Positions 21,075 to 21,278 of a DNA stretch of 64,000 nt are shown here, in pieces (within the stretch, counting starts at the first letter, position 1; each line of letters starts with the position of its first letter). A model generated the notes under the pieces. That model made no database searches, was not told the DNA's origin, and saw only the letters and a program-made list of their open reading frames with translations. A program made the translations under genes and the position numbers. Source of the stretch: a virus; the IMG/VR virus record IMGVR_UViG_3300035696_000013, positions 32,001-96,000 of that record; one strand, written 5' to 3'.

Positions 21075-21104
21075 TACCCGAAATTGGGAAATACGGAGTA
21101 TAAT
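21075..21104 (+). promoter_or_regulatory. Bipartite promoter upstream of tRNA cluster 1
   Basis: TACCCGA-N16-GTATAAT. Confidence 0.7.
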
Positions 21105-21110
21105 AGCAAT

Positions 21111-21215
21111 ATGAAGAACGCAGCACAAGTAGAACGAGATTGTAACGGAGCCACTGAACCTGGCGTCGCAGACGCGGGGACGGTGTCCTCGGACGTAATT
21201 GTGGAGGGCGGTTAG
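21111..21215 (+). CDS. Putative leaderless leader peptide (34 aa)
   Basis: ATG 6 nt after -10 box; ends in TAGCAACCGAT before a terminator. Confidence 0.4.
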   Translation: MKNAAQVERDCNGATEPGVADAGTVSSDVIVEGG

Positions 21216-21243
21216 CAACCGATTCAAACCACAAGATCGACCG

Positions 21244-21278
21244 AGGACGCCCATTAAACCGGGCGTCCTTTTTGTTTT
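21244..21278 (+). terminator. Intrinsic terminator
   Basis: AGGACGCCC-loop-GGGCGTCCT plus T tract. Confidence 0.85.

Follow-up and report, generated by a model that had tools for sequence, protein, structure and literature searches.

Leader reading frames with codons for the tRNA genes behind them in a huge phage: candidate attenuators of tRNA clusters

Attenuators that work through a leader peptide control amino-acid biosynthesis operons of enterobacteria, namely trp, his, leu, thr, ilv and pheA, and in the pheM-pheST system of E. coli a Phe-rich leader peptide controls phenylalanyl-tRNA synthetase. Antitermination of the lambda N/nut and rrn boxA types needs a conserved box sequence together with protein factors. 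A general description of the attenuators of biosynthesis operons is given in the accessible part of PMC1183508, and in mycobacteria leaderless short open reading frames (ORFs) encoding polycysteine are Cys-responsive attenuators, according to the accessible part of bioRxiv 10.1101/834739. Here we analyse short leader ORFs that precede clusters of tRNA genes in a 64,000-nucleotide stretch of viral DNA, hereafter the window, which comprises bases 32001-96000 of the 132,623-base IMG/VR record IMGVR_UViG_3300035696_000013. Since a record of this length is rated only 41% complete, the window comes from a huge phage. We propose, with a probability of roughly three in four, that the leaders at site 1, at site 2 and at 56439-56501 are ribosome-mediated (leader-peptide) transcription attenuators of the tRNA clusters behind them.

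With the trp-type attenuators the leaders share a short ORF that carries putative regulatory codons and, at sites 1 and 2, an intrinsic terminator; an antiterminator, predicted at site 1 and a candidate at site 2, would take up one strand of that terminator. Here, too, a ribosome stalled on the regulatory codons is predicted to favour read-through. By its modelled structure, site 1 has the structural features of the trp, his, leu and pheST attenuators. However, trp-type attenuators control proteins of biosynthesis or aminoacylation and use a run of codons for one amino acid, whereas the leaders stand before tRNA genes and an RNase P RNA and carry a mixed panel of codons for up to 12-13 tRNA species. 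Unlike in the enterobacterial systems, region 2, which would supply the 5′ strand of the antiterminator, is part of the ORF and precedes its stop codon, and the attenuator is phage-borne. In all, four features differ from the classical attenuators: tRNA genes as the presumed target, the mixed codon panel, the placement of region 2 in the ORF and the viral carrier. No prior description of such tRNA-cluster leaders was found in the literature covered by the search, which did not extend to subscription journals and supplements.

Three further systems come close. In pheM-pheST the decoding of specific codons is likewise tied to a component of the translation apparatus for those codons, but there a protein-coding synthetase operon senses one amino acid, whereas here the tRNAs themselves would be regulated. 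The T-box (RF00230) is also a switch between terminator and antiterminator that reports a specific tRNA through codon-anticodon recognition; it differs from the leaders in that it binds uncharged tRNA directly, has one specifier codon, does without translation and serves protein genes. A T-box search gave no match at the gathering threshold in the window, the only threshold applied at site 2, and none at E <= 5 in 19800-21400. The mycobacterial polycysteine ORFs, as far as the accessible part of that source describes them, resemble the leaders, as these are modelled here, in being leaderless, in lying at the 5′ end of an operon transcript and in acting as codon-specific sensors, and differ in being bacterial, in sensing one amino acid and in preceding protein genes. 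The lambda N/nut and rrn boxA sites are short RNA sites upstream of genes that are read through terminators, as an 11-mer shared by two of the leaders might be; their box is conserved, whereas the 11-mer is conserved in no relative.

Leader ORFs and the tRNA genes behind them

ARAGORN finds 27 tRNA genes in the record, all of them within the window, in three groups on the plus strand. The groups and the leader ORFs before them are as follows.

21111-21215, plus strand: leader ORF 1 (site 1), 34 codons and TAG, with its ATG 6 nt past the -10 box; apparently leaderless
21690-23992, plus strand: cluster A, 15 ARAGORN tRNA genes, 14 of them typed (Val, Gly, Asp, Cys, Ala, Glu)
52084-52155, plus strand: leader ORF 2 (site 2), 23 codons and TAA, with its ATG 6 nt past the -10 box
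52212-53226, plus strand: cluster B, tRNA-Tyr(GTA), Leu(CAG), Leu(GAG), Leu(TAG) and Leu(CAA)
56439-56501, plus strand: leader ORF 3, 20 codons, with Met, Pro and Phe codons abundant
56622-60079, plus strand: cluster C, tRNA-Pro(CGG), Ser(GCT), Pro(GGG), Pro(TGG), Met, Met and Phe, with ORFs interspersed

Each leader ORF is built from codons that are read by the tRNAs behind it. Cognate codons make up 22 of the 33 internal codons of leader 1 with respect to cluster A (background 0.34, P = 1.3e-4), 7 of 22 in leader 2 with respect to cluster B (background 0.10, P = 0.005) and 8 of 19 in leader 3 with respect to cluster C (background 0.13, P = 0.002); when a leader is set against another cluster, none of the six cross-comparisons is significant (P at least 0.81). 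The anticodons covered amount to 12/12, 5/5 and 5/6 (Pro/Met/Phe) for leaders 1, 2 and 3, and for codons sampled at random according to the codon usage of the phage, coverage this complete has a probability of 0.0018, 0.012 and 0.025, respectively. The correspondence extends to single codons. Leader 1 contains no Leu or Tyr codon, and its single Cys codon matches the only tRNA of cluster A that reads a codon not beginning with G. Leader 2 has one codon type per tRNA, CTA, TTG, TAT, CTG and CTT, matching Leu(TAG), Leu(CAA), Tyr(GTA), Leu(CAG) and Leu(GAG), respectively; TTA is absent from it, and cluster B likewise has no tRNA for TTA. In leader 3 there are four internal ATG codons in addition to CCA, CCG, CCT and TTT.

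Relatives were sought through the neighbouring B12-type ribonucleotide reductase, which retrieved 39 viral loci. The same Val/Ala/Gly/Asp/Glu/Cys cluster lies a few kb downstream in 11 of them. A homologous promoter-ORF-terminator unit stands immediately before the first tRNA-Val in 10 of these 11, and the eleventh has an endonuclease-VII-like gene at the insertion point seen in the window, with the leader just upstream of that gene. Five relatives are on long contigs, three of which are rated complete (332-463 kb), and these larger genomes also contain Tyr/Leu, Pro/Met/Phe, Ile/Thr/Gln, Ser/Leu(TAA) and Trp/His/Arg/Asn/Gln/Lys clusters. Across six genomes, homologous leader ORFs were found 5′ of 24 of the 25 cluster starts examined; homologues of leader ORF 2 are present in G001, G002, G004 and G005. 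The leaders of Ile/Thr/Gln clusters are runs of Thr, Gln and Ile codons. In one Ser/Leu(TAA) leader, Ser codons of seven types occur eight times in total and TTA occurs once; TCC, TCA, TTA, TCG, TCT, AGT and AGC are among the codons seen in the Ser/Leu(TAA) class. One Trp/His/Arg/Asn/Lys leader has TGG, CAT/CAC, four CGN codons (CGA, CGG, CGT, CGC), AAT and AAA/AAG.

In 24 leaders of the six genomes, 167 of 174 distinct anticodons have a cognate codon in frame, compared with 91 and 87 of 174 in the +1 and +2 frames, and every anticodon is covered in 18 of the 24. In a class test, each of the 25 cluster starts was represented by the best-scoring ATG-started ORF of 15-60 codons in the 900 nt ahead of it, and the cluster's own class gave the top score in 23 of the 25 regions, the exceptions being G002-B and G004-C. 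The cognate codons are also unevenly placed: in 17 leaders of classes B-F they account for 141 of 257 codons in the first 60% of the ORF, as against 19 of 172 in the last 40% (Fisher P = 8e-22). Apart from a structural 3′ part, the leader peptides are poorly conserved, and nearly identical 3′ parts are common to leaders of different classes, which suggests a modular build in which variable codon panels would be exchanged on a common switch. Between different genomes, a Ser-class and a Tyr/Leu-class leader (L047 4723-4803 and L052 3493-3579) were seen to have their last ten residues identical.

An exact-pattern scan for class A leaders in IMG/VR gave only 7 stretches, 2 of them on new contigs, and a tRNA-Tyr search of five further fragmentary relatives found no more Tyr/Leu leaders. 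Megablast of 19500-24500 against a collection of cultured phages gave no match; the phages returned by a protein search with the ribonucleotide reductase were all small and distantly related (identity 61% or less), and no cultured relative emerged; the proteins at 50087-51256 and 18189-19133, used as probes, found no relatives among viral contigs.

Alternative helices and the proposed mechanism

The elements around the leader ORFs are listed below, site by site.

21059-21070, plus strand: upstream block of site 1, GATTTTTTCGCT, part of a shared promoter-like motif
21099-21104, plus strand: -10 box of site 1, TATAAT, read from the sequence and missed by a simple sigma-70 scan
21182-21192, plus strand: region 2, GGTGTCCTCGG, inside ORF 1; 5′ strand of the antiterminator, pairing with 21241-21251
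21199-21234, plus strand: stop-codon hairpin of site 1, with the 11-mer TAGCAACCGAT (21213-21223) at its tip
21241-21251, plus strand: region 3, CCGAGGACGCC, complementary to GGTGTCCTCGG and doubling as the 5′ strand of the terminator
21243-21270, plus strand: terminator of site 1, 10 pairs, 7 of them G-C, followed by TTTGTTTTAT, with the U tract at 21271-21280
21295-21699, plus strand: endonuclease-VII-like ORF (Pfam PF02945, E 4.7e-21), homing-type, between the terminator and tRNA-Val (21690)
52053-52063, plus strand: upstream block of site 2, GATTTTTCGCT, part of the shared promoter-like motif
52072-52077, plus strand: -10 box of site 2, TATTAT, read from the sequence
52116-52121 / 52126-52131, plus strand: candidate hairpin of site 2, without covariation support
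52143-52150 / 52161-52168, plus strand: candidate hairpin of site 2, taking in part of the 11-mer (52162-52172)
52178-52186, plus strand: candidate region 3 of site 2, without covariation support
52180-52199, plus strand: terminator of site 2, 7 pairs, 6 of them G-C, followed by TTTTTATTTT, with the U tract reaching 52210
56302-56560, plus strand: third leader unit, with the promoter motif at 56302 and a Shine-Dalgarno-like GAGAG at 56428-56432
56477-56484, 56535-56542 and 56551-56559, plus strand: complementary segments of the third leader

A preliminary description of this DNA had reported one layout at sites 1 and 2, and all its parts were located: the -10 box, the ATG 6 nt on, the ORF of 34 or 23 codons, the 11-mer and a strong intrinsic terminator, with tRNA-Tyr starting at 52212, just past the U tract of site 2. 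Some of its details need amendment. It placed the terminator before the cluster, which at site 1 is not directly so, as the endonuclease-VII-like ORF intervenes; it did not list the third leader; its bipartite promoter is borne out as to the -10 boxes and the shared upstream block, and lacks a canonical -35; the two peptides, which it called unrelated, are so in sequence, but it missed that either peptide is encoded by codons belonging to the tRNA cluster behind it. Rfam contains no family for the leader of site 1 or site 2, and the only sub-threshold match, at site 1, was RefA9 (E 2.7) on the strand opposite the terminator. Recoding of the TAG that ends leader 1 was considered and rejected, as under the standard code ORFs of at least 100 aa already cover 88% of this record, itself 41% complete; it is also disfavoured by the class A leaders of relatives, which stop at TAA.

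The block shared by the two sites, GATTTTT[T]CGCT, is one part of a promoter-like motif of which the plus strand of the record has five copies. It consists of TTTACCTGATTTTTC, about 10 nt and GTATTAT, with no canonical -35, and may represent a phage-specific promoter class. A pattern scan of the record placed its copies as follows.

12180, 21059, 52053, 56020 and 56302 of the window, plus strand: promoter-like motif

The copy at 12180 precedes an ordinary protein gene. As a promoter element at a fixed distance, GATTTTTCGCT was rejected, being 28 nt from the -10 box at site 1 and 8 nt at site 2. No Shine-Dalgarno sequence is found at sites 1 and 2, so initiation there would have to be leaderless; in some relatives a Shine-Dalgarno sequence stands ahead of the ATG.

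The distance from the stop codon to the terminator stem is 19-35 nt in 18 of 18 leaders (classes A, B, D, E and F), and a G+C-rich hairpin with a T run at that spacing was found at sites 1 and 2 and in 18 of 23 scanned leaders of the window and relatives. Both helices of site 1 covary in an alignment of 10 class A leaders (A2). For the antiterminator, 82.5% of the cells are paired, compared with 40-47% when the strands are slid, and 6 pairs are changed on both sides; for the terminator the figures are 95%, 37-64% and 5 pairs. Neither covariation score was reached by any of 500 shuffles. Columns 199 and 202 covary with their partners in both helices.

Folding was modelled with a ribosome of 28-nt footprint whose A site was moved along the ORF. 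At site 1 the predicted probability of the terminator, P(terminator), lies between 0.02 and 0.34 while the A site is at codons 11-20 and is at least 0.9 at codons 23-35; without a ribosome it is 0.68. In this model, the profile of site 1 is that of a classical attenuator. A P(terminator) of at most 0.2 at early positions together with at least 0.8 at the stop codon was obtained at equilibrium for 10 of 23 leaders. For site 2 a proxy of the nascent transcript was used, in which the RNA stops short of the terminator's 3′ strand. In this proxy, sequestration of the 5′ strand is about 0.8 while the ribosome occupies codons 1-10 and 0.1-0.4 while it occupies codons 12-23, a modelled profile that is consistent with a kinetic switch.

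How might such a leader work? In the mechanism that we propose, the phage promoter would fire and the short leader ORF would be translated at once. The first part of the ORF would serve as a 'codon panel' holding at least one codon for nearly every tRNA species of the cluster. Slow decoding of any panel codon, when the cognate charged tRNA is scarce, would stall the ribosome upstream of region 2, and region 2 would then pair with the 5′ strand of the terminator and allow read-through, so that the tRNAs, and at site 1 the RNase P RNA too, would be made. With fast decoding the ribosome would cover region 2 on its way to the stop codon, which would leave the terminator free to form and end transcription 10-20 nt before the cluster. 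Since the products are tRNAs that speed decoding, the phage tRNAs would restore decoding and shut off their own cluster, and each codon-family cluster would be a self-limiting regulon. Beyond the anatomy, the codon/anticodon match, the conservation of the ORFs and the covariation of both helices at site 1, which are observed, we infer for this reading that the ORFs are translated, where transcription starts, which way the switch works and that site 2 has an antiterminator. It is also fairly likely, in our judgement, that huge phages sort their whole tRNA complement into codon-family regulons, each under a codon-panel leader that would gauge, for every codon of the family, whether the infected cell can still decode it, and would turn on just the matching tRNA cluster together with the RNase P RNA.

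The 11-mer and competing explanations

The 11-mer TAGCAACCGAT occurs in only two exact copies in the record, at 21213-21223 and 52162-52172, the places named in the preliminary description. When one mismatch is allowed, the window has 4 matches where 0.8 would be expected, and 4 were reached in 0 of 100 shuffles; the one-mismatch match at 12628 lies inside a protein-coding gene and was taken as chance. The TAG of the 11-mer is in frame with the ORF at both sites. Its place in the structure differs, the tip of a hairpin at site 1 and the 3′ strand of the equivalent hairpin at site 2. In relatives a stop-codon hairpin is present at the same position with another sequence (alignments A2 and A3). 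Because the sharing is too unlikely for chance, it is read as shared ancestry or gene conversion between paralogous leaders, and the 11-mer is probably a lineage-specific shared piece of the stop-codon hairpin, left as a trace of paralogy or gene conversion, and not a sensor. A lineage-specific function would still be conceivable.

The preliminary description offered two possibilities for the leaders, and the analysis separates them. Its attenuation or translation sensor is favoured by conserved ORFs that end 19-35 nt before terminators, by their codons for the downstream tRNAs and by the overlap of the ORF with the covarying antiterminator at site 1. Its other suggestion makes the 11-mer a target, in the manner of nut/boxA, for an antitermination factor of the phage or the host. 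This could draw on the fact that two leaders have the exact 11-mer at corresponding positions and that the 132.6-kb record has no further copy, but it is scarcely credible: the scan for the 11-mer that it called for, run over the record and the relatives, found 0 exact copies in 59 relatives' loci (801,521 bases), although these keep their leaders, and the 11-mer is not conserved before their tRNA clusters. The 10 one-mismatch matches in relatives all lie away from leaders, the position is that of a variable hairpin, the third leader in the window has no 11-mer, and at the two sites the 11-mer pairs with different partners. No antiterminator protein of the phage was suggested by a Pfam scan, which covered only 17 ORFs near the clusters.

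Several observations weigh against ribosome-mediated attenuation. At equilibrium 13 of the 23 leaders do not show the switch, the automatically chosen terminator is never favoured in G001-A, G001-C and G003-C, and at site 2 the equilibrium P(terminator) stays at 0.67-0.97 at every ribosome position, without a switch. The family of site 2 comprises 5 sequences with a near-invariant terminator and gives the antiterminator no covariation support. At site 1 the nascent proxy sequesters region 3 again (0.9) with the ribosome on the last three codons, and only an uncomputed steric argument bars that helix across the bound ribosome. Terminator scans found no U-tract terminator in the third leader and its Pro/Met/Phe family, whose output may differ from that of sites 1 and 2. 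Sites 1 and 2 have neither a canonical -35 nor a Shine-Dalgarno sequence, a 419-nt insert bearing the endonuclease parts the terminator of site 1 from its tRNAs, and tRNA-like genes 5′ of site 1 could feed read-through transcripts into the leader. A search for sequencing runs that contain the stretch returned 3 DNA runs, labelled as peat metagenome, two of which may be its source, and no RNA run. The codon statistics have their own biases: the leader ORFs of the class test were picked by best score, which is a selection bias; G004-F was dropped from the count of 174 anticodons, the ORF chosen by the pipeline not being the one beside the terminator; the leaders of relatives share ancestry and hence are not independent; the enrichment in class A is partly a by-product of G-rich structure; and the +1 and +2 frames of leader 1 still cover 8 and 6 of its 12 anticodons.

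Some of these points would suit leaders that are translated and sense decoding with an output other than intrinsic termination, such as Rho-dependent polarity, precursor processing or stability, or termination specific to a phage RNA polymerase. The Pro/Met/Phe family, including 56439-56560, keeps a hairpin without a U tract, and site 2 has no equilibrium switch. We regard this alternative as unlikely, given the G+C-rich hairpin with its T run 19-35 nt past the stop codon at sites 1 and 2 and in 18 of the 23 leaders, and given the covariation of the competing helix at site 1. A sensor made of RNA alone, in which the codon panel pairs directly with tRNA anticodons in the manner of a T-box with many specifiers and no translation, would be suited by the codon/anticodon match taken by itself. 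The panel, however, always lies in one ATG-started open frame that ends 19-35 nt before the terminator, the +1 and +2 frames of the 24 leaders are interrupted by 43 and 31 stops, a Shine-Dalgarno sequence is present in some relatives, the use of wobble-related codons follows the way in which a ribosome reads, and neither a T-box nor any other Rfam match was obtained; such a sensor is very improbable. We give as little credence to the view that unrelated genes for small proteins or RNAs happen to stand before tRNA clusters, with the codon match a by-product of composition or duplication. Each unit is indeed a complete promoter-ORF-terminator cassette, and a similar promoter-terminator unit without an obvious codon panel is found at 56020-56283, yet the match is specific to the own cluster in 23 of 25 regions and six codon families, it is specific in frame and position, and the peptides are poorly conserved apart from the structural 3′ part. 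Attenuation by a translating ribosome is the reading that we favour.

Neighbouring features and significance

Further features of the clusters are given here for the record.

21783-21852, plus strand: cluster A tRNA gene with an unreadable anticodon, one of the 15 found by ARAGORN
22516-22878, plus strand: RNase P RNA of bacterial class A inside cluster A, 266.9 bits
52616-53107, plus strand: HNH ORF inside cluster B, homing-type (Pfam scan)

A class A RNase P RNA (165-267 bits) within the Val/Ala/Gly/Asp/Glu/Cys cluster was found in the window and in all 6 of the relatives scanned, in which it lies at these positions.

L003: 18067-18444
L004: 17597-17917
L006: 16768-17146
L007: 16306-16656
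L010: 16060-16358
L013: 17193-17567

The literature search found no paper on an RNase P RNA inside a tRNA cluster of a huge phage. The insertion point of an endonuclease VII-type gene behind a class A terminator is reused in another relative (L040/L059). ARAGORN missed tRNA-like genes at 19930-20015, 20187-20271 and 20704-20830 of the window and at about 5310-5545 of L043. One of these was called by Rfam only (45 bits); the others have a 7-bp acceptor stem and a T arm with a long insert in the anticodon region, and may be intron-containing or split tRNAs.

Just 3′ of the Leu cluster lies an ORF with a response-regulator receiver domain (53555-54073, Pfam), and a radical SAM ORF (60118-60888, Pfam) is located after tRNA-Phe. 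Adjoining the promoter of the third leader on its upstream side, 56020-56283 begins with another copy of the promoter motif, the fourth, behind which structured sequence extends for about 230 nt and closes with a strong terminator. This unit has no convincing ORF with a codon panel and no Rfam family; near 56200, Rfam gave only the sub-threshold matches Pab19 and AS-pc01. The relatives G003 (L043), G002 (L049) and G004 (L051) each carry 2-3 tRNA genes with a CUA anticodon beside Lys/Gln tRNAs; these are amber suppressors, labelled 'Pyl' by ARAGORN. A tmRNA is present in one of the three.

The control of phage tRNA genes and the purpose that they serve are long-standing questions. Recent work argues that phage tRNAs stand in for host tRNAs that are degraded or destroyed by tRNA-cleaving defences, according to the accessible parts of PMC10264068 and PMC11555353. 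If the leaders act as proposed, the tRNA arrays would be under demand-driven control, which would form a homeostat of decoding capacity, would also let the phage sense that host tRNAs are depleted or that defences which cleave tRNAs are at work, and would explain the sorting of phage tRNA arrays by codon family. Classical attenuation would thereby be extended from enzymes to the decoding machinery. A codon panel on a common switch would also be a compact, programmable part with which to sense individual tRNA species.

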